Origin: a virus
Strand: one strand, 5' to 3'
IMG/VR virus record: IMGVR_UViG_3300009509_000004
Location: 42,759-106,758 of that record
Length of the DNA: 64,000 nucleotides
Part shown: positions 22,465-53,513 of the stretch, piece after piece
Position numbering within the stretch: the stretch's first letter is position 1
Layout of the letters: each line of letters starts with the position of its first letter
Translations under genes and position numbers: made by a program
The notes under the pieces: model-generated
The model's input: the letters and a program-made list of their open reading frames with translations, nothing else
The model's database searches: none
What the model was told of the DNA's origin: nothing

Positions 22465-22500
22465 TGATTTTGTGCAAATGATGTGGGAGAACGGCTGAAA

Positions 22501-28934: not shown

Positions 28935-28950
28935 GTCGATCTCCTTGGAG

Positions 28951-29055
28951 GGGTGGACGGCACCAGGGTGCAGGAGATCAGACCAAGAAGAAAACCCAAG
29001 AAGCCTGAGCCCTATCTGGCGGTTGGCATGGCCATAGCACCCTGGTGCCTCACCC
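28951..29055 (-). other. Intergenic structured element closed by a 13-bp perfect inverted repeat
   Basis: ggcaccagggtgc 28959-28971 pairs with gcaccctggtgcc 29037-29049. Confidence 0.5.
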
Positions 29056-29078
29056 GTTTTTCAGGGTTGCTTGCGATC

Positions 29079-45135: not shown

Positions 45136-45642
45136 CTATTGGATGACGAATGGCCCCTTTGGACCTGTGGCGATGGCCCCGCTGTAGAATTGCTTGAGCA
45201 ATCCCCAAAGCGCCTGTCTTTGTGCATGTGGAACCACGTTGACCTCGTTTTCGCCGTCCCAATGCCGCCCTGGGATGCGCCGCCAAGCGTGAAGTGAATC
45301 CTCGTTGTATGGCGTTTTGACGATGTAGGTGCCTGCGTGGTCAACAATCTTGACCGCAACGCACCTTTTCTCGATGCGATCTGCCAAGTTGTGGAATCCC
45401 AGATCCCTGAGTCTCGCAAGCGGCTCAACCGCGTCCATCCCGTTCTGAACGATGGCGATCTTGTAGACCAGCTGGTTGGCCTCTTTGCGGTCTGCCTCGC
45501 TGACCTCGACCTTGTTGAGAAGTCTTGCCCGACAATCTGGGCCCATTCCCGCCTCGACTGATGCCGCGTCAACCAACGGTTTGCCGCAGGCTGCGCAGTG
45601 GGTTGCGAGAATCTTGGTGGTTGGTGCTGTTTCGTATGACAT
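45136..45642 (-). CDS. Early protein with CxxCG.PL.D..S...G.GP.C Zn domain (DUF6011-like) and C-terminal HARP-like domain
   Basis: Motifs; start directly after promoter module 1. Confidence 0.7.
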   Translation of the reverse strand: MSYETAPTTKILATHCAACGKPLVDAASVEAGMGPDCRARLLNKVEVSEADRKEANQLVYKIAIVQNGMDAVEPLARLRDLGFHNLADRIEKRCVAVKIVDHAGTYIVKTPYNEDSLHAWRRIPGRHWDGENEVNVVPHAQRQALWGLLKQFYSGAIATGPKGPFVIQ

Positions 45643-45745
45643 GCCCGTTCTCCTTTCAGGTGGTTTGCCTTCCACCTTTTCTTCAAGTATAGTTGGCTTG
45701 CTTCCATAAGTCAAGAAAAAACGACCTCAGAGACAACTTTTTTTG
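45640..45745 (-). promoter_or_regulatory. Early module 1: TTGACT-17-TATACT promoter plus hairpin leader
   Basis: -35 at 45714-45709, -10 at 45691-45686. Confidence 0.85.
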
Positions 45746-46098
45746 TATGCCTGATACAGCGCAACGTTCAACGTTGCCGTCCTGGCCGGTTTCTGGACAA
45801 GCCTTGTGCCGTTTGTGTGTTGCGCAAGCGCATCGAGCCATCCCCCTGTGTAAATGACCACTGGAAGTGGGCACCTTTCAATCATCACCCTTCCCCCGCC
45901 CAACGGCACATCCCAATCACTAAGCACCACGTCATACTTCCCTGTTGCCGCCTCGACCAGCCCCTGTTGTACTGTGTAAACTGCCTTGACTTGCTTCCAG
46001 TGGTCCTTGAGTTGCCTCTCAATCGCCCTCGCCAATGTTTCATCATCTTCAACCACAAGCAAACTGAGCCGCCTGATGGTGCCCTCCATTCCAATCAT
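45727..46098 (-). CDS. Stand-alone response regulator receiver domain (CheY-like)
   Basis: LLVVEDD, DVVLSDWDVP (phospho-Asp), IYTG, QKP. Confidence 0.85.
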   Translation of the reverse strand: MIGMEGTIRRLSLLVVEDDETLARAIERQLKDHWKQVKAVYTVQQGLVEAATGKYDVVLSDWDVPLGGGRVMIERCPLPVVIYTGGWLDALAQHTNGTRLVQKPARTATLNVALYQAYKKSCL

Positions 46099-46114
46099 TT
46101 TTTCTCCTTGGTGG

Positions 46115-46143
46115 AAGTGAAAAGGGCACCCAACGGGTGCCCC
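46115..46143 (-). terminator. Intrinsic terminator
   Basis: GGGCACCC-GTT-GGGTGCCC-TTTT. Confidence 0.65.
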
Positions 46144-46167
46144 TCTCGCTCCTATGTTGTCGCCCTG

Positions 46168-47181
46168 TCAGGCGATGGCTTCCAAAATCATCTCAGCCTC
46201 ATCCTCTGCCCTCGGATCCAACGACCAACGCTTGATTCCCCTGAAGCGCTTGACGTCAACGTCAATCGGATTCAGGAAGCGAACAAAGCTGCCGTTGATC
46301 TCGACACCTTCTGGGCTGATGATACCGTCTGTGACCAGCTGCTCAACGATCTCCTTGGCGCTCTTGCTCTCGCCCTCTTTGGTGTCTGTCACAACGTAAA
46401 CACCGCCCGCGTGGCGCTTGCCGCACTTGCGCTTGGCCTCGACCTTGACCAACCGCTCTTCAACCGTCCTGAAGCCTCGCTCTTTTTCCATCTGGTCCTT
46501 GACCACCTCGGTGTCCTCTGCCTTCAGAATATACTCAACCGCGTCAGGGAGAAACAAACCAAACACCTTGGCGTCTGGAAGTCTGCCCGTGCCGCCGCAC
46601 GTTTCGCACATTTCCTTGTCCAAAACGTTGGCGATGTTGAATTTTTGCGGCTGATGAAGCCAGTAGTTGTATTTGCGATAGTCCCAACGCTCTGACTTGA
46701 GCCCCTCGCCGTTTGCGACTGTAGCGTGGCCGCCTGTGCCGCCCTCGACATGATCTGACATGCCGCTGATCTCGCCTTGGAGTTTGAGCGCCTTCTGCGC
46801 CCTGCGCTCGATGAGCTTGTTGATGCGGTCGATGTCGGCCTGGCCGCCTTCTGCGTCGCAAACGCCCTTGTCGATGCTCTCTTGGACGCCCTTGGCGTTG
46901 TCTTCCAGATCCTGGATCTCCTTTTGGAGATTTTGGAGCGCTTGCTTGGCCTTGCGCTTTTCTGGATTTTCGATGGTGCCGAGACAATCCGCGCACTCGT
47001 GGAAGCTGCCCTCATCGTGCGCGACGAAAATGACGGTGCCCTCTTGCGTGAGCGCCTGCCCTACGTCTGCGTTGGGTAGCCTCTTGGAAATGCCCTGCGT
47101 GACCGCCTCGCCCGTCCAATCCTCGATGGACTTGTAGTGCTCTGACCCGACCCACATGAGATAGCTTTGCTTGATTTCCAT
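46168..47181 (-). CDS. Early hypothetical protein with split Zn finger and coiled-coil insert
   Basis: CADCLG...CETCGG; start 47181 after module 2. Confidence 0.75.
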   Translation of the reverse strand: MEIKQSYLMWVGSEHYKSIEDWTGEAVTQGISKRLPNADVGQALTQEGTVIFVAHDEGSFHECADCLGTIENPEKRKAKQALQNLQKEIQDLEDNAKGVQESIDKGVCDAEGGQADIDRINKLIERRAQKALKLQGEISGMSDHVEGGTGGHATVANGEGLKSERWDYRKYNYWLHQPQKFNIANVLDKEMCETCGGTGRLPDAKVFGLFLPDAVEYILKAEDTEVVKDQMEKERGFRTVEERLVKVEAKRKCGKRHAGGVYVVTDTKEGESKSAKEIVEQLVTDGIISPEGVEINGSFVRFLNPIDVDVKRFRGIKRWSLDPRAEDEAEMILEAIA

Positions 47182-47297
47182 GTCCGTTCTCCTTTGTTTG
47201 GTGTTTGCCCTCACCATCTAATACAATTATAGTTGGCTTGCTTCCAGAAGTCAAGAAAAAAACGACCTTGGAGGCAACTTTTTTTGTCTCCACGTCC
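47179..47297 (-). promoter_or_regulatory. Early module 2 (terminator hairpin + TTGACT-17-TATAAT + leader)
   Basis: -35 at 47254-47249, -10 at 47231-47226. Confidence 0.88.
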
Positions 47298-47695
47298 TAC
47301 AACTTGGTGTAGCCCTTTTTCTGCTTGGCCTTCACCAGATCGGCAAACACGTGTTCTGCCTTGCCTTGGGATGGATACTTGCCCTTGATCTGCCTCTGGA
47401 GAGAATGCGTGCGCCGCCCCCACTCGATTGTCACCTGGAAGTCGCCATCTGCAAGCCTGTCCAAGTGGACGTTGTACACCTTGTCCGATGTCCCTTGGCG
47501 ATAGGCCAAGTTGGTCGTCACGATCCTGGCTGCCTCTGTCGCCCCGTGTGCGTTCTTTGTGTCCAGCGCGTCTGCTATGACGTCTGGTATGGCCTTGGCC
47601 TCTGCCGCTTCCCTCCGCACATCCTCGACACTTTTCAGCACGCCCTGCCCAAAAGTGCCCTCCCTCATCGCCTTTCTGATTTGTTCGAGATCCAT
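47297..47695 (-). CDS. WGR-domain protein
   Basis: SDKVYNV...EWGR...LVKAKQKKGY; start reassigned to 47695. Confidence 0.8.
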   Translation of the reverse strand: MDLEQIRKAMREGTFGQGVLKSVEDVRREAAEAKAIPDVIADALDTKNAHGATEAARIVTTNLAYRQGTSDKVYNVHLDRLADGDFQVTIEWGRRTHSLQRQIKGKYPSQGKAEHVFADLVKAKQKKGYTKL

Positions 47696-47705
47696 GATCC
47701 ACCTC

Positions 47706-48539
47706 TCAATCGAAGCAACCCGTGTTTCGCCAGTACACCTTGAGGTCTGGGTCGAAATACACGGTGTTGTCCGGTGACTCGTATGTTTGCCCCTTCTTGG
47801 CCCCTTCCCGCTCAAACGCCACCACGTAGGAATTGACGATGAACTCGCCGTTGCTGAATCGCAGCTGCGTCCAGCCCTTGTCGCAGAGCGCTTCCAGCGC
47901 GTTGTCGCTGATGGAGCACGGCAATTTGCGCTCTGGCTGCCTGACCTTGAGGATGTGATCGGGGTGGATCCAACGGACATCGCTTGGGCCTCTGAACCGT
48001 TTGCCCATCGCTGCCCCCATCGCCTTGAGCATCGCCAGATCCGACTCGATGCCCCTGAGATTGCGCTCGATGCCGACCTTGCCCGACTGGAAGTTGACTT
48101 TTGCCACCCGCTCCCACTTGCTGCCGTCCCTGTAATTGACCAACACCTCGTCACCGATGCTGATTTTTGTGCCGCTGGGTGCGTTGCGCCAAAATTGTGA
48201 CCCGTTGTAATCCAGATCGCCGATTGCCGCCCTGCCTCGCTCTGCCCGCGCCTGCTTCCGTTCTTGGACTTCCTGCTGCGTGCCTTCCATCTGTCCCAAC
48301 GCCTCGTTGAGCTGCTCCTGGGTGTATGTGCCCTTGGGCAGCCCCAAAAGCGCCTCGCCCTTGACCGTCCAAGCGTAGGTTTTGCCTGTGCGCTCGATGG
48401 GCGCAAGCGTGTACTCTCGCTTGCCTGCGTATTTGCCCCGCCTGATGTACCTGGCGCTTTGGATGACGCAATCGATCCTTTTGCCTTTCGACATGATGCT
48501 GACCGCGTCACCTACCTTGAGTGCTTTGAGATCTGTCAT
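47706..48539 (-). CDS. Early hypothetical protein with SH3/KOW-like repeats
   Basis: LKVGDAVSI and ISIGDEVLV; GGAGAACGG RBS. Confidence 0.7.
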   Translation of the reverse strand: MTDLKALKVGDAVSIMSKGKRIDCVIQSARYIRRGKYAGKREYTLAPIERTGKTYAWTVKGEALLGLPKGTYTQEQLNEALGQMEGTQQEVQERKQARAERGRAAIGDLDYNGSQFWRNAPSGTKISIGDEVLVNYRDGSKWERVAKVNFQSGKVGIERNLRGIESDLAMLKAMGAAMGKRFRGPSDVRWIHPDHILKVRQPERKLPCSISDNALEALCDKGWTQLRFSNGEFIVNSYVVAFEREGAKKGQTYESPDNTVYFDPDLKVYWRNTGCFD

Positions 48540-48593
48540 GCCCGTTCTCCTTGTTGGGTTGCCAACCCTCTTTGTTTTCTACTGAGCTGCCAC

Positions 48594-48881
48594 TTACAGC
48601 GCTGAAATTGCCGCCTCGATGTCTTCTGCCGATGCTCCGTTGAATTTCCCAAACTCCCTGACGCCTTTTTCGGTGATTTCTGCGAAGTAGTGCTTGACCT
48701 TGCGGGTGCGCTGCTCGCTGAAAACCTTGATGAGCCCTTCCTCGGTGAGCTGCTTGACCGCCTCGCCATATCCTGCCTGGAACCAATCTGGGCTGCGAAA
48801 GTTGGTGCCCAACTCGATGATGCCGCCGTTGGTGTTGAGGATGTTGATGAGAATGTCTTTTTGCGCCTCGTTGAAATTCAT
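48594..48881 (-). CDS. Winged-helix-like protein
   Basis: AVKQLTEEGLI...AEITEKG. Confidence 0.65.
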   Translation of the reverse strand: MNFNEAQKDILINILNTNGGIIELGTNFRSPDWFQAGYGEAVKQLTEEGLIKVFSEQRTRKVKHYFAEITEKGVREFGKFNGASAEDIEAAISAL

Positions 48882-48974
48882 CGTGACCTCCTATTCTTCA
48901 ATTATAGTTGGCTTGCTTCCAGAAGTCAAGAAAAAAACGACCTTGGAGGCAACTTTTTTTGGCTCCATCGTTCT
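48879..48974 (-). promoter_or_regulatory. Early module 3
   Basis: -35 at 48929-48924, -10 at 48906-48901. Confidence 0.88.
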
Positions 48975-49068
48975 CCACCTCCTTGACGATGTGTGTTTTT
49001 TATACACACACCTGCCCGTGGCCGCCTGGCTGGGCAGCCGCCTGCGCGCCCCGCTGCCGCCGCCGTGC

Positions 49069-49245
49069 CTACTGGCGGTGTGGCGGCTTGACCCGCTTGA
49101 CCTTGCCCGCCTTGGTGTTGCGGGAGTGGTTGGCCTTTGAGCGGGAAAAAAGGGTGCGGCAGAATCCGTCGTTGCGGTCGTTGTAGCTGCCGACCTCGAT
49201 GAAAAGCGCCTTGCGGATGGAGATCTGATTTGCGTTGTTGGTCAT
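49069..49245 (-). CDS. 58-aa basic early protein (below ORF-track cut-off)
   Basis: MTNNANQISIRKALFIEVGSYNDRNDGFCRTLFSRSKANHSRNTKAGKVKRVKPPHRQ directly after the module 4 RBS. Confidence 0.6.
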   Translation of the reverse strand: MTNNANQISIRKALFIEVGSYNDRNDGFCRTLFSRSKANHSRNTKAGKVKRVKPPHRQ

Positions 49246-49343
49246 GTCCGTTCTCCTTTGCCCTATTCTTCAATTATAGTTGGCTTGCTTCCAGAAGTCA
49301 AGAAAAAAGTTGCCTTGGGGCCAATTTTTTTTGACCCCAAGGC
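49243..49343 (-). promoter_or_regulatory. Early module 4
   Basis: -35 at 49301-49296, -10 at 49278-49273; 13-bp upstream stem. Confidence 0.88.
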
Positions 49344-49355
49344 GTGACACCTCCC

Positions 49356-49583
49356 TCAATAGACGATCCAACCCCGCCCCATGTTGTCCCTGCGTCGTGG
49401 GATGTCCTCTGCCGGCACGTCCAACTTCCCTGCGTACACCCCGACCATCAGCGGATCGTCGCAGACGATCCCAACACAAGTGGAACCGTACATACAACGC
49501 CCCGAATATGTTGGGCGCACGCTCGCCTCGTATCCGTCTGACTCCAACGCCTCCACGATTTTCTCTGCTTGCTCCAACGTCAT
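49356..49583 (-). CDS. Conserved small phage protein (YSGRxMYGxxC)
   Basis: Motif; GGAGAACGG RBS. Confidence 0.7.
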   Translation of the reverse strand: MTLEQAEKIVEALESDGYEASVRPTYSGRCMYGSTCVGIVCDDPLMVGVYAGKLDVPAEDIPRRRDNMGRGWIVY

Positions 49584-49596
49584 GTCCGTTCTCCTT

Positions 49597-49902
49597 TCAA
49601 TCCAAAGTGAAGCGCACGACCCAGCCTGAACCGTGCGCGGCGTGAGTGTATTGAACGGGTGCGCTCGCCTGCCGTAGCTGACCGCCGTGGAGGTGGTGGA
49701 AGTAGGGTTGCCGGATGAGCGCCCTCAAAACCACCTCCTGGACCTTCCTGATGTCCTGGAAGTCTGCTGGCGAGTCTGCGAGCACGGTGACCTCTGCTCC
49801 GATGACCTGATATGGGTCGTGCTGGCGACCTCTCGCTGCCGCTTTGACCATTAGACTGGGCCTGAACCCAGCCTTGATCGGATTTTGGTGGATGACCTTC
49901 AT
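49597..49902 (-). CDS. Hypothetical protein
   Basis: 101 aa; ATGA overlap. Confidence 0.55.
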   Translation of the reverse strand: MKVIHQNPIKAGFRPSLMVKAAARGRQHDPYQVIGAEVTVLADSPADFQDIRKVQEVVLRALIRQPYFHHLHGGQLRQASAPVQYTHAAHGSGWVVRFTLD

Positions 49903-50084
49903 TCTCGCTTCCCCTCGACCTCGACTGAGAATTTCAACTCAATGTCGTATCCGTTCTCAGGATTTTCGTGAACAAAATCGACCATTTCCTTGAGCGCTTC
50001 CATTGCCTCCTGCCAGGAAAGATCCCGATCTGTACACCGACCGTCCACCCAAAATTCCACTTTTTTCAGTAGTTTTGTCTTCAT
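49899..50084 (-). CDS. 61-aa hypothetical protein
   Basis: MKTKLLKKVEFW...; GGAGAACGG RBS. Confidence 0.6.
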   Translation of the reverse strand: MKTKLLKKVEFWVDGRCTDRDLSWQEAMEALKEMVDFVHENPENGYDIELKFSVEVEGKRE

Positions 50085-50097
50085 TGCCCGTTCTCCC

Positions 50098-50577
50098 TTA
50101 GCTGCTTGCCAAGCCAAAAAATACAAAAACTTTGCCGTGTCGCCCCGCCATCCCGTAGCGCTTTTTGTACTCGACCGTTGCGCTGTAGCCCAACTCGATG
50201 GCGAGCGCTGGCCCCCACTTGTCGTTGTAGCGCCTGGCGTGACTGAGCGCCCAGGTGCGATACTGCTTGGGAACCTGACGGATGAAATTGCGCTTGGCCT
50301 CTTTGTCGTCTGAATCCGACTCCTGGAAGAATGCCGCCGCCTCGATCCAACCGATGGCCTTGCCGACCTTGACCTGCTTGTTGGGAAGCTGGATGAGGGT
50401 GTAACCGTGCTTGGAAGCGATGTCGCCGCTGTAGCTGTAGAGATCCTCATCGCAAGCGTCGTATCCGTCGCAAGCCATATCCGCCCGCCTCTCGCTGGCC
50501 GCCTGGTCTTGCGCGTTGCGGAAAGCCGCCCCGATGTCTTTGCCAAATGCCGTCGTTGAGAATTCACATGCGCCCAT
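50098..50577 (-). CDS. Conserved phage hypothetical protein
   Basis: MGACEF...AF..A...YSGDIASK...KWGPALAI...FFGLAS. Confidence 0.75.
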   Translation of the reverse strand: MGACEFSTTAFGKDIGAAFRNAQDQAASERRADMACDGYDACDEDLYSYSGDIASKHGYTLIQLPNKQVKVGKAIGWIEAAAFFQESDSDDKEAKRNFIRQVPKQYRTWALSHARRYNDKWGPALAIELGYSATVEYKKRYGMAGRHGKVFVFFGLASS

Positions 50578-50682
50578 TTCCGTTCTCCTTTTGTTTGCCC
50601 TATTCTTCAATTATAGTTGGCTTGCTTCCAGAAGTCAAGAAAAAAACGACCTTGGAGGCAACTTTTTTTGTCTCCAAGGTCG
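50575..50682 (-). promoter_or_regulatory. Early module 5
   Basis: -35 at 50638-50633, -10 at 50615-50610; CGACCTTGGAG/CTCCAAGGTCG stem followed by T7. Confidence 0.88.
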
Positions 50683-50692
50683 CCATCTCCCC

Positions 50693-51028
50693 TCACTCTC
50701 CTTTCACAAACCAATCGACAGGGGCAAGCCCCAAGTATCCGTTCAGCCGCTCAAATACCTCGTTGGCGTCCAAGCAACCCTCGATCCGACTCCGCACCGC
50801 CTCCACGAAACACCGCGCCCCGATTGTCGAGACAACGCCGTTGAGAATCAGCCAACGGCCATCAGCGATCTCGATCTCCACCATCTTCCCATCTTCCTCA
50901 AATAGAATCTGGGCAGCTGTCTCGCCCTCGCCCACCTCCCACGTATAGTGGGCACCCTCGCCATCGCCGTCCACGAAAAACCCAGCAACGATGGCTCTCT
51001 TGGTCTCTTTGATTTTCTTCTTCATCAT
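50693..51028 (-). CDS. Hypothetical protein
   Basis: GGAGAACGG RBS; after module 6. Confidence 0.6.
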   Translation of the reverse strand: MMKKKIKETKRAIVAGFFVDGDGEGAHYTWEVGEGETAAQILFEEDGKMVEIEIADGRWLILNGVVSTIGARCFVEAVRSRIEGCLDANEVFERLNGYLGLAPVDWFVKGE

Positions 51029-51140
51029 CCGTTCTCCTTTCAAGTTGGTATGCCGTCCAACCATACTTCAATTATAGTTGACACCCCCGACTATTTTTGG
51101 TCCATTTTGCAGGTTGGAGGCAATTTTTTTTGTCTCCACG
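51026..51140 (-). promoter_or_regulatory. Early module 6 (degenerate -35, intact TATAAT and leader)
   Basis: -10 at 51076-51071. Confidence 0.6.
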
Positions 51141-51373
51141 TACTTTTTTTGAGAGCCAATTTTTTTTTGCCTCCACGTTCTTTTTCTCTTGACTTCTGCT
51201 CCCCAATTTTCTCAATTTCCAAAGTCTATTGAATAGATTGCGGAGAACCCACGCCCGCTTGGCTCGTTTGCGTCGTGCCTCTCGCTCAAGCCCCGCTTGG
51301 ATATGCTCCACCCATGCCGCTCGATGTGGGTTTTCTTGGCTCTGCCGATCTTGCAATTGCGGAAAGCCACGTC

Positions 51374-51433
51374 AAAAAAAGTTGGCTCTGAAGTCTCTTT
51401 TTTCTTGACTACAACTTCTTTTGGCGTTATACT
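51374..51433 (+). promoter_or_regulatory. Plus-strand promoter of the same family (A7 GTTGG...TTTTTTC TTGACT-17-TATACT)
   Basis: -35 at 51405-51410, -10 at 51428-51433. Confidence 0.8.
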
Positions 51434-51439
51434 ATACTT

Positions 51440-51580
51440 GCGGGGTGTATGCTGCATTCGCGTGCTACCGTTTGCCTGAACCTTCTAACGCGCCGCGTTA
51501 GAGCAAGGCAGATCTCCCCCTTCCTCCCCAGCGGTGCTGGTAGGTACCAGTACTGTCCTGGATGTGCTTCCACCTGCTCC
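51440..51580 (+). ncRNA. Putative structured small RNA
   Basis: Follows the plus-strand promoter; no ORF; stems 51471-51512 and 51531-51556 with G-U pairs valid only on + strand; C-rich linker. Confidence 0.55.
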
Positions 51581-51792
51581 TACGGCAGAACGTGGACCAC
51601 GGTGAAGCCTCTCGACTGCGCCGTGGCCTTGGCCTGCTGGCGTGCCTCGGTGAAGGTGCCGGTGAAGCTGACCCAATTATCCATGTTGTCTGGATCGTCG
51701 CCCAGAGCGAACATCCACGCCCCAAAACCCTTGGGTTGCTTCATGTGACTGCGGAAGAATGCTGCGGTTTCAACTGATACTCTCTTTGCCAT
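51580..51792 (-). CDS. Conserved small phage protein (SHxKxPxGxGxWxF)
   Basis: Motif; after module 7. Confidence 0.75.
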   Translation of the reverse strand: MAKRVSVETAAFFRSHMKQPKGFGAWMFALGDDPDNMDNWVSFTGTFTEARQQAKATAQSRGFTVVHVLP

Positions 51793-51885
51793 GTCCGTTC
51801 TCCTTTGCCCTATTCTTCAATTATAGTTGGCTTGCTTCCAGAAGTCAAGAAAAAAACGACCTTGGAGCCAACTTTTTTTGACCCA
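51790..51885 (-). promoter_or_regulatory. Early module 7
   Basis: -35 at 51848-51843, -10 at 51825-51820. Confidence 0.88.
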
Positions 51886-51913
51886 CCACTTCCACTGAGC
51901 AATGCCCTGAACA

Positions 51914-51947
51914 GAAAAGTAGGAGTGCCCCACAACGGGGCACTCCT
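51914..51947 (-). terminator. Intrinsic terminator
   Basis: AGGAGTGCCCC-GTTGT-GGGGCACTCCT-ACTTTTC. Confidence 0.7.
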
Positions 51948-51977
51948 TGGGCAAATGGAGAACGGATGACGATCTGG

Positions 51978-52586
51978 TCAGCGCTGATCTGTCTTCAAGA
52001 TCCCAAAGCGCTGCGTGAGCTTGTATTCATCGATGAGCTGATCTGCGATGTCCTTGTTGCCCAGCTCTTGGGCAAGCATCGTCAGCACCAACCCGATGAT
52101 GTTGTGCGTGTAGTTGCCATTCTGTTGGAGTGCTCGCCTGATGCGCGATCTCGCCTTGGTGACTGCTTCTGGCTCGTTGTCCGGCACCTTGTCGCAGATG
52201 CACTCGACCCTGCCGCAGATCTCACAAAGTGGGCGTGGGGCTGGCTTTTCCGATTTGCTGGGTGCCTTCTTGGCCTCCCTCGCTGCCTCCCCTGCCGCCT
52301 CTCGTGTTTTCGATTTGATCTTGACCTTCCCCTTGGGCTTGGTCTGCTTTTTGCCTCCTTGCTGTGTTTCTGCGTGCTGGCCCTCGCTGGGTGCCTCTGG
52401 TGCCGTGTAGCCTTTCTCTCTGATGTCGCCGTGAGCTTCGCAATCTGGATTGCGACAGAATGCGTATGGGTCAGACTTCTTGACTGACCTGTACTTGCCT
52501 GCCGCCTGAAGCTCTGGGTCTGGCATGTGCTTGAAGAGAATCTTGCCGCACGCGGGACAAGGTGGCTGTTTTGGTCTGCCTGCCAT
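51978..52586 (-). CDS. Zn-finger early protein
   Basis: CPAC...CRNPDC and CEIC..CIC; AGGAGG RBS. Confidence 0.7.
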   Translation of the reverse strand: MAGRPKQPPCPACGKILFKHMPDPELQAAGKYRSVKKSDPYAFCRNPDCEAHGDIREKGYTAPEAPSEGQHAETQQGGKKQTKPKGKVKIKSKTREAAGEAAREAKKAPSKSEKPAPRPLCEICGRVECICDKVPDNEPEAVTKARSRIRRALQQNGNYTHNIIGLVLTMLAQELGNKDIADQLIDEYKLTQRFGILKTDQR

Positions 52587-52598
52587 GGTAGCCTCCTG

Positions 52599-53183
52599 TT
52601 ATGCCCGCTCGATGACGGTTGCTAGGTTGAAAAGTGCCTCGCTGATTTCGCTGCGCCCCTTGACCTCTGCGACCTCTGCGAGACTGAGGGTGCGCTCGAT
52701 GGCGCTGTCCCTGTCGTAACTGAACTGCTGCGTTTGCGCGACTTGAAGCGCCTTGTCGGTGTACTCTTTGGCCGTCGTGAACTCGTGACCGTTGAGCGCC
52801 CGCTCGATGACCTGAAGCGCCTCTTGAACGATGTGGACGGTGACCTTGCCGTAGCTGGTGCTGCGACGGTTGCCTGCGTAGGTGGTGCGCGTCCAAACCT
52901 GGTAGCCCTTTGCGCGCTTGATTTGCTGGGCCTGCTCCCAAAGCTCCTTTGCGATGGCCCAAGTGAAAGTGACCTCGGTGATCTCGACTGCCGACTTGAC
53001 AAACGCCTTGCTTTCGCCGTGTCGGGTGCTGGCCCCGCCGTTGCGCGCTTCCTTGGCGCTGCTTACCTCGCCCCAACACCGCACGATGGCTTCTGGCTTG
53101 GCGCGAAAGTCGATGGCCTGAACGATGTACTTGCGACCCGTTGCTTTGACTTCTGCGATGCGTTCTTTTCTGATTGGCTTCAT
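52599..53183 (-). CDS. Early hypothetical protein
   Basis: 194 aa after module 8. Confidence 0.7.
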   Translation of the reverse strand: MKPIRKERIAEVKATGRKYIVQAIDFRAKPEAIVRCWGEVSSAKEARNGGASTRHGESKAFVKSAVEITEVTFTWAIAKELWEQAQQIKRAKGYQVWTRTTYAGNRRSTSYGKVTVHIVQEALQVIERALNGHEFTTAKEYTDKALQVAQTQQFSYDRDSAIERTLSLAEVAEVKGRSEISEALFNLATVIERA

Positions 53184-53278
53184 TCCCGTTCTCCTTTGCC
53201 CTATTCTTCAATTATAGTTGAAGCCAATCCAGAAGTCAAGAAAAAAGTTGCCTTGGAGGCAATTTTTTTTGGCCCCTC
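53181..53278 (-). promoter_or_regulatory. Early module 8
   Basis: -35 at 53239-53234, -10 at 53216-53211. Confidence 0.85.
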
Positions 53279-53513
53279 ATCCGATGTTGATTTTCTTGAG
53301 CCTCTCAATGGGCACCCTGTCATTCGGATCGCCGTTCAACTCGATCTCTGTCGGGATGTCAATGCCAATCTCGTTGAACACGATGTGTCGCATCTCAAAC
53401 CCGCTGATCCGCCCCTCACGCTGGATGCCTTCTGAAGTCTCCAATCGCACAAACTCGCCAACTGAGTTGACCAGCTCGTCAATCCATTTCCCTGTCTCGC
53501 TCTTGTTCGCCAT
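53277..53513 (-). CDS. Sm/Hfq-like fold protein (candidate)
   Basis: Helix then VRLETSEGIQREGRISGFEM (Sm1-like) and VPIERLKKI (Sm2-like); AGGAGG RBS. Confidence 0.5.
   Translation of the reverse strand: MANKSETGKWIDELVNSVGEFVRLETSEGIQREGRISGFEMRHIVFNEIGIDIPTEIELNGDPNDRVPIERLKKINIG

Follow-up and report, generated by a model that had tools for sequence, protein, structure and literature searches.

Why should an early phage gene carry, between its stop codon and its terminator, a complement of the ribosome-binding site that is common to about a dozen early genes of the same phage? The sequence that raises this question occupies positions 51949–51968 of the window, by which we mean the whole stretch of viral DNA analyzed here, 64 kb in length; positions below are those of the window unless given as genome positions. 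We tentatively read the 20 nt between the stop codon of a 202-aa gene and its terminator as an RNA-level anti-leader, i.e., an anti-ribosome-binding-site element, a reading that stands just short of probable on the folding and pairing models presented below. When a variant confined to read-through transcripts is counted in, an RNA-level anti-leader becomes probable on the same models.

Genome Context and Relatives

The viral record is a genome of 106,758 bp (54.5% G+C) that has direct repeats at its termini and is estimated to be 100% complete, and the window is its right-hand 64 kb. Its structural genes include those for tail sheath, portal, and MuF-type head proteins, and the genome is therefore that of a myovirus. 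About 93% of it is coding, with effectively all genes on the minus strand; the sole plus-strand gene call (window 51832–51969) was judged spurious. Among GenBank phages we found no near-identical or moderately similar DNA, and the portal protein is at most 34% identical to theirs, with no T4-like phage among the matches listed. A portal search of IMG/VR recovered relatives at ~60% identity (G001–G004), which have neither the cassette array nor the extended shared ribosome-binding site described below, as well as one 14-kb fragment (L015) with 81% nucleotide identity that contains structural genes only. Rfam and tRNA scans of the 64-kb window were empty. Exact-pattern scans returned no match for the promoter spacer and single, chance-like matches only for the ribosome-binding site.

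L016 is a relative with a 43% homolog of the 202-aa protein and the same cassette design of A-box and promoter; its own shared ribosome-binding site is GGGAGTCAGCCATG, found six times. No anti-leader occurs in 20 kb of L016, where a promoter cassette comes directly after the stop codon. Three distant relatives from metagenomes (L019, L020, and L023) contain arrays of A6GTTCTCGAC...TGGAAGCA...-10 cassettes with the ATG ~7 nt past the -10 box and apparently leaderless genes, and in other distant relatives cassettes are absent altogether. The spacer word TGGAAGCA of these arrays is also found in the promoters of the phage studied here (CTGGAAGCAAGCC) and may be a conserved factor-binding element.

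The Early Cassette Array and Its Shared Leader

An array of repeated regulatory cassettes extends from 45.6 to 53.3 kb of the window. Each consists of an A7-box-T7 element that is able to form or complete a terminator, a TTGACT-17-TATAAT promoter whose spacer is identical between copies, and a short leader, GGGCAAAGGAGAACGG(N2-3)ATG, after which come one to four small genes without known families; the early proteins gave no significant Pfam or PHROG match. With its A/T tract, sigma-70-like promoter, stem-loop, Shine-Dalgarno (SD) sequence, and start codon upstream of ORFans, the array is a composite repeat of the PeSL type. There are seven copies in this interval plus a variant at 51081, and two more elsewhere in the genome, where complete cassettes, with the GGCAAA element and GGAGAACGG, drive cobS and cobT.

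The shared early leader is GGGCAAA followed by GGAGAACGG and ATG, and GGAGAACGG is the ribosome-binding site of 12 genes in the whole genome. Eight further genes with GGAGAACGG (45642–51040, minus strand), which start near 51028, 50577, 50084, 49583, 49245, 48539, 47181, and 45642, are candidate trans targets on the basis of their leader motif and predicted duplexes. The cassette that follows the anti-leader (51790–51848, minus strand) drives a 70-aa gene and comprises a promoter at 51848–51820 and the leader GGGCAAAGGAGAACGGACAUG, which lies 138 nt downstream of the anti-leader.

The leaders of cassettes P47254 and P45714 (window 45619–47219) and of cobS (genome 16550–16640) fold into hairpins whose stems differ, while the loop, (A)GGGCAAA, is constant; in the remaining cassettes the GGGCAAA element is unpaired at the 5' end. 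Because the same loop sits on differing stem sequences, GGCAAA looks like a recognized single-stranded element, and these predicted folds suggest an RNA element that is recognized separately from the SD. The anti-leader carries the exact complement of this element.

Two other features of the array deserve description. The only plus-strand promoter in the region (TTGACT-17-TATACT, 51405–51433) shares the same A/T box (window 51371–51885). Its RNA would have an unpaired CUCCCCCUUCCUCCCC tract and would run antisense through the 70-aa gene, and would therefore contain a perfect 21-nt anti-leader (51790–51810); a hairpin with U7 at 51826–51879 possibly ends this antisense RNA at a length of ~440 nt. 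Immediately upstream of the first cassette, a gene at window 53277–53513 (minus strand) encodes a 78-aa protein. It had no Pfam match, Hfq included. In a single-sequence AlphaFold model (pLDDT 70.8) it is built of a single helix at the N-terminus and five strands, and its structural neighbors are almost exclusively Hfq, LSm, and Sm proteins (VIA Z 7.7–6.0 over 57–64 aligned residues; Foldseek E 0.007–0.02 to Hfq/LSm). Judged by this model, it may be a phage Sm/Hfq-like RNA chaperone.

The Anti-Leader and Its Transcription Unit

The initial annotation had described the 3' UTR of 51978–52586 as closing with an anti-leader and, right behind it, a strong terminator, and the sequence bears out this layout exactly. 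The stop codon (UGA) of the 202-aa gene is at 51980–51978, the anti-leader begins 9 nt after it, and a single nucleotide separates the end of the anti-leader from the hairpin of an intrinsic terminator (51910–51947, minus strand). This terminator is a 12-bp G+C-rich hairpin (51947–51921) followed by ACUUUUCUGUUC; its stem joins 51947–51937 to 51931–51921 in 12 pairs, eight of them G-C. Anti-leader and terminator together make up a 66-nt 3' end with a predicted fold of -25.3 kcal/mol.

Read as DNA, the minus strand from 51968 to 51949 is CATCCGTTCTCCATTTGCCC, and the corresponding RNA, CAUCCGUUCUCCAUUUGCCC, complements GGGCAAA, GGAGAACGG, and AUG with one bulged A. On the plus strand, the same positions read GGGCAAA (51949–51955), an extra T (51956), GGAGAACGG (51957–51965), and ATG (51966–51968). 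Local alignment to five cassettes agrees with the further claim that the complementarity spans the GGCA element, the SD, and the start codon with a small indel: similarity begins exactly at GGGCAAA and stops at ATGA(C), and is interrupted by one 1-nt insertion and, relative to leaders with ACATG, a 2-nt deletion. The same alignment found no promoter similarity beside the anti-leader.

The gene whose 3' UTR holds the anti-leader (51978–52586, minus strand) encodes a conserved, Cys-rich early protein of 202 aa, with six homologs at 46–80% identity (among them homologs at 80%, 73%, 56%, and 51%) that share invariant CxxC motifs. Searches of viral, metagenome, and genome contigs gave homologs of at most 43% identity or none. 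The family is small, is found in metagenomes only, and has no Pfam or PHROG match; its members share two Cys clusters that do not vary (CPxCG...CRNxxC and CExCGxxECxC), as well as an invariant helix-rich domain at the C-terminus.

The 202-aa gene is the second of a two-gene unit, the first being a 194-aa gene (52599–53183, minus strand) with no significant family match. The promoter of the unit, TTGACT-17-TATAAT at 53239–53211, and its 5' leader, GGGCAAAGGAGAACGGGAAUG, fall within 53181–53239 (minus strand). There is no convincing terminator or promoter between the promoter at 53239 and the terminator at 51947–51921, and no minus-strand promoter-like site inside 51978–52586. The target leader (53204–53181) and its anti-SD complement are thereby located at the 5' and 3' ends of one predicted transcript.

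Chance Occurrence and Sister Sites

A scan for the complement of the leader with up to three mismatches is uninformative alone, as it cannot discriminate a match that contains an indel. Word counts and simulations were more telling. SD-like purine words are nearly absent from the plus strand because the coding strand is purine-rich: in the whole genome, AGGAGG occurs 0 times on the plus strand vs. 62 on the minus strand, and AAGGAG four times vs. 88. The shorter word GGAGA is similarly skewed, with 165 occurrences on the coding strand vs. 21 on the other. Given such extreme strand asymmetry, anti-SD words in mRNAs are rare, and the few that there are were found concentrated in intergenic structures.

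Markov models give an expectation of 0.03–0.09 plus-strand copies of GGAGAACGG, and three were observed. The average over 400 order-3 Markov simulations was 0.05 copies, none of the 400 had two or more, and the composite GGGCAAA-N0-2-GGAGAACGG never arose. All three plus-strand copies are intergenic, in 3' UTRs of minus-strand genes, and all are beside or inside terminator-like hairpins. Chance is excluded as the origin of the anti-leader.

We also scored every 24-nt window of the minus-strand transcriptome for duplex formation with the consensus leader. The anti-leader (site C) was the best match at -33.9 kcal/mol (z ~ -9; background -7.4 ± 2.9), followed by site A at -29.2 kcal/mol; the next match was at -24.6 kcal/mol, leaving sites C and A as two clear outliers.

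Site A (genome 11156–11168, minus strand) is contained in the 38-nt loop of a terminator with a 12-bp stem (genome 11120–11242; 2121–2243 of locus L158) at the end of the cobT-cassette unit. The 3' side of this loop reads UGUCCGUUCUCCU and is complementary to the early ribosome-binding site over 13 nt. Since site A ends the cobT unit, two cassette-driven units have a target at the 5' end and a complement at the 3' end. No relatives were found for the protein encoded upstream of site A. Site B, with the anti-SD core CCGUUCUCC (22486–22494, minus strand), is located 6 nt past the stop codon of an 82-aa gene that follows the MuF gene, where it is unpaired and upstream of a terminator-like hairpin. 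It is the weakest of the three sites and is not conserved in the 81%-identical fragment L015, in which CCGTTCTCC is replaced by CCATTCTTG. Neither site A nor site B is followed by a plus-strand start codon, and they are therefore not plus-strand ribosome-binding sites; both also lack a matching ribosome-binding site downstream.

The third-best match of the duplex scan is in a 144-nt intergenic region at window 28935–29078 (minus strand). This region contains a long hairpin with a loop that ends in GAUCUCCU, which is perfectly complementary over 8 nt to AGGAGAUC, the ribosome-binding site located downstream, and from its sequence the region is possibly a structure that sequesters the SD in cis.

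Predicted Pairing and Accessibility

Pairing with the leaders of cassette mRNAs, as proposed in the initial annotation, is also what duplex energies predict. When the 66-nt 3' end was cofolded with ten leaders, the interaction energies ranged from -13.5 to -33.0 kcal/mol, vs. -7.8 kcal/mol for the control, the leader of cassette P48929, from which the motif is absent. The terminator hairpin was retained in every cofold. With the 5' leader of its own unit (promoter 53239), the predicted energy was -28.0 kcal/mol.

The accessibility of the anti-leader depends on the length of RNA considered. Its predicted probability of being unpaired is 0.78 in the 66-nt 3' fragment, and 0.95 for the UUUGCCC part, and falls to 0.38–0.52 in longer 3' contexts. 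These models allow three possible topologies: pairing within its own mRNA, pairing in trans with cassette mRNAs, and, in read-through RNA, pairing with the next leader. Pairing in cis within the same mRNA is possible since the target is also present in the 5' leader of this operon. Site A supports own-mRNA or trans pairing, as it ends the cobT unit and has no matching ribosome-binding site downstream.

Alternative Explanations

The plus strand offers two other accounts of the locus. Read in that direction, GGGCAAATGGAGAACGGATG could be the leader and start of an open reading frame of 173 aa (51966–52487), or part of an antisense transcript; it has an SD-like GGAG at the correct spacing from the ATG, and the frame is 173 codons long. 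The frame is, however, codon-aligned antisense to a conserved gene, as in a classic shadow frame, and its log-odds per codon are -0.18 vs. +0.32 for the 202-aa gene on the minus strand. It is broken in several homologous loci, has no PHROG match, and has no promoter in front, only a hairpin just upstream that lacks promoter similarity; transcription from the one plus-strand promoter (51405–51433) meets the hairpin and U7 at 51826–51879 before reaching the site. We rejected this start-site reading because of its non-coding codon usage, the homologs and their broken frame, the absent promoter, and the lack of start codons at sites A and B, and consider any plus-strand function very improbable. 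Translation of this frame, which the initial annotation named as an outcome that would refute its reading, is made less likely by this indirect evidence. An invertible promoter is harder still to credit. The leader copies at 51790–51810 and 51949–51968 would be the arms of a 138-bp segment containing promoter P51848, and these inverted repeats do flank that promoter; because the arms begin right after its GAAGAATA, flipping the segment would place the promoter in front of the plus-strand leader and rebuild a full plus-strand cassette. Yet the arms differ by indels, the gene switched on would be the shadow ORF, and sites A and B are not paired repeats. A phage-encoded inverton was rejected outright, as no serine or tyrosine recombinase (PF00239/PF00589) was matched in the complete genome, in a search whose controls were positive; a host enzyme would be possible.

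The two remaining accounts accept the inverted copy on the transcribed strand. It could be a neutral scar, an inverted partial leader left by recombination in the cassette array and tolerated because it is in non-coding DNA, which we regard as unlikely. Some ten near-identical cassettes must recombine, the PeSL cassettes of T4-type phages are known to recombine at crossovers that map to the interval from the -10 box to the SD/ATG (PMC2839356), an inverted upstream half-cassette with a promoter lies 540 nt away (51371–51433), and L016 is without any such element. What a scar accounts for less well is that the copy comprises the transcribed leader only and nothing of the promoter, that it was placed exactly between stop codon and terminator, and that two more anti-SD copies (13 and 10 nt) are found in 3' UTRs at terminators, far from cassettes; three independent scars would be needed, on a strand otherwise free of such words. 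The other account, which we hold to be distinctly unlikely on its own, is a cis element that works only in read-through, when the anti-leader pairs with the next leader once polymerase has passed the terminator. The 70-aa gene would thus be silenced on upstream transcripts, insulating the cassette, and an RNase III site could lead to breakdown of the read-through RNA, as happens in the sib retroregulation of lambda. In the predicted minimum free energy (MFE) structure of the read-through RNA (51985–51775; -83.8 kcal/mol, z -5.35, 0 of 200 shuffles as good), the anti-leader is paired with the leader of the 70-aa gene, and the centroid structure closes the long-range helix as well; anti-SD pairing in cis may also occur elsewhere, between GAUCUCCU and AGGAGAUC of the hairpin at 28935–29078. 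On the other hand, a terminator of this strength should let little read-through RNA arise, and as the 70-aa gene is driven by a strong promoter of its own, silencing a few copies would change little; downstream of sites A and B, moreover, there is no matching ribosome-binding site on which to act.

A Possible Mode of Action

If the 20 nt do act as an RNA-level anti-leader, the sequence of events could be as follows. From the sigma-70-type promoter at 53239, a two-gene early mRNA of ~1.3 kb would be made, ending at the 51947–51921 hairpin. The last single-stranded stretch of this mRNA, beside the protective terminator hairpin, would pair over ~19 bp with the shared leader on about a dozen early-cassette mRNAs, the targets being the GGGCAAA element, the SD GGAGAACGG, and the AUG. 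Pairing would hide SD and start codon from 30S subunits, and the duplex would be long enough to be a plausible substrate for RNase III, so that translation of the early cassettes would be damped or shut off as a result. The nearest partner would be the 5' leader of the same mRNA, in an icaR-like pairing of 5' and 3' UTRs, and other leaders could be reached in trans, either by the full mRNA or by a 3' fragment of ~60 nt. A processed, trans-acting sRNA, the form envisaged in the initial annotation, is thus one possible version of the anti-leader reading. The ends of the transcripts, any processing, the occurrence of pairing in vivo, its partner, and its consequence for translation are all inferred.

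In favor of this reading we count the exact layout and a complementarity that is confined to the transcribed leader, the excess of plus-strand GGAGAACGG copies over expectation and their placement at hairpins in 3' UTRs, the first and second ranks of sites C and A in the duplex scan, and the cobT unit as a second case of target and complement at opposite ends. We further count the predicted duplex energies, the accessibility in the 66-nt fragment, the exact complement of GGCAAA, the lack of plus-strand start codons at sites A and B, and the predicted Sm/Hfq-like fold of the 78-aa protein. Against it, site B is not conserved in L015 and L016 has no counterpart, and in the longer 3' contexts the anti-leader is predicted to be unpaired with a probability of only 0.38–0.52. 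Ribosomes that terminate at the stop codon, 9 nt upstream, would overlie part of the element. The interrupted U tract would be a poor anchor for Hfq. There is also a single copy of the repressor RNA, under the same type of promoter as its ~10 targets, which is a weak stoichiometry unless the fragment accumulates.

A wider reading, to which we assign a low probability, is a phage-wide, RNA-based shut-off of early genes, in which leader complements at the 3' ends of early, cobT, and late head-gene units would act together with an antisense RNA and an Sm/Hfq-like helper. The antisense RNA, with its perfect anti-leader, would be made from the divergent promoter, and the Sm/Hfq-like protein encoded by the phage next to the array would help pairing; such a system would do with RNA what RegA and RegB do in T4.

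Comparison with Known Systems

The closest known systems are the pairing of 5' and 3' UTRs in icaR and the sRNAs derived from 3' UTRs. In Staphylococcus aureus, an anti-SD in the 3' UTR of icaR pairs with the SD in its own 5' UTR, which blocks ribosome loading and creates a substrate for RNase III (PMC3868564). Similarly, the operon that ends in the anti-leader is predicted to begin with a target leader. The two differ in that ours is a phage early operon rather than a bacterial regulator gene, its 3' UTR is ~65 nt rather than several hundred, and its ~19-bp complement covers the whole leader and the AUG rather than a short UCCCC motif. The target is, moreover, common to ~12 mRNAs, and action in trans is for that reason equally possible. 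In enterobacterial sRNAs of the CpxQ, SroC, and DapZ type, the seed is located upstream of the terminator of the parental mRNA, and targets are bound at translation initiation regions (PMC7821165). The anti-leader resembles these in its position at an mRNA 3' end, in sharing an intrinsic terminator, and in having a predicted single-stranded seed directed at initiation regions. Unlike them, it has an interrupted U tail, a seed 9 nt from the stop codon, and no internal promoter that we could find; its putative targets are sister mRNAs of a phage regulon instead of host genes.

Phages are known to occlude ribosome-binding sites with antisense RNAs, examples being c4 of P1 and P7, sar of P22, and OOP of lambda. 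P1 c4 is cut from the 5' part of its own transcript and acts on one operon, regulator and target being co-transcribed, while sar and OOP are true antisense RNAs, transcribed from the other strand. Regulator and target reportedly share one transcript also in the case of T7 gene 1.2, which Saito and Richardson are said to have described in 1981. As in all of these, a segment of phage RNA here complements a ribosome-binding site from the same region of the genome. In contrast to c4, sar, and OOP, the complement is sense-encoded, at a 3' end, and is directed against a leader that is repeated across many units. Early mRNAs of T4 are shut off through their ribosome-binding sites by proteins, the repressor RegA and the GGAG-specific nuclease RegB. 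The anti-leader, if our reading is correct, would likewise switch off many early mRNAs via a feature of the ribosome-binding site, with the difference that the agent would be RNA; there is no homology between the systems.

The array itself is comparable to the PeSL cassettes of T4-type phages, in which promoters and early stem-loops are arrayed before ORFans (PMC2839356, PMC4122927). In both, small ORFans are preceded by an A/T tract, a promoter of the sigma-70 type, a terminator stem-loop, and an SD with start codon. The leader of the present array is far more uniform, and an inverted leader copy in a 3' UTR has not been described for PeSLs; the portal of the phage is at most 34% identical to those of GenBank phages.

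Most of what is known of post-transcriptional control in lytic phages concerns proteins such as RegA and RegB, along with a few true antisense RNAs. Should the inverted copy prove to be a scar only, it would document inverted exchanges in a PeSL-like cassette array outside the T4 group. If the anti-leader reading holds, the phage would have a compact means of timing or capping early translation in the complement of a leader common to a whole regulon, encoded in sense and located where mRNAs end, with target and regulator of ~20 nt each inside a portable 1.5-kb segment, and regulation from 3' UTRs, as in icaR and the CpxQ-type sRNAs, would be extended to virulent phages.
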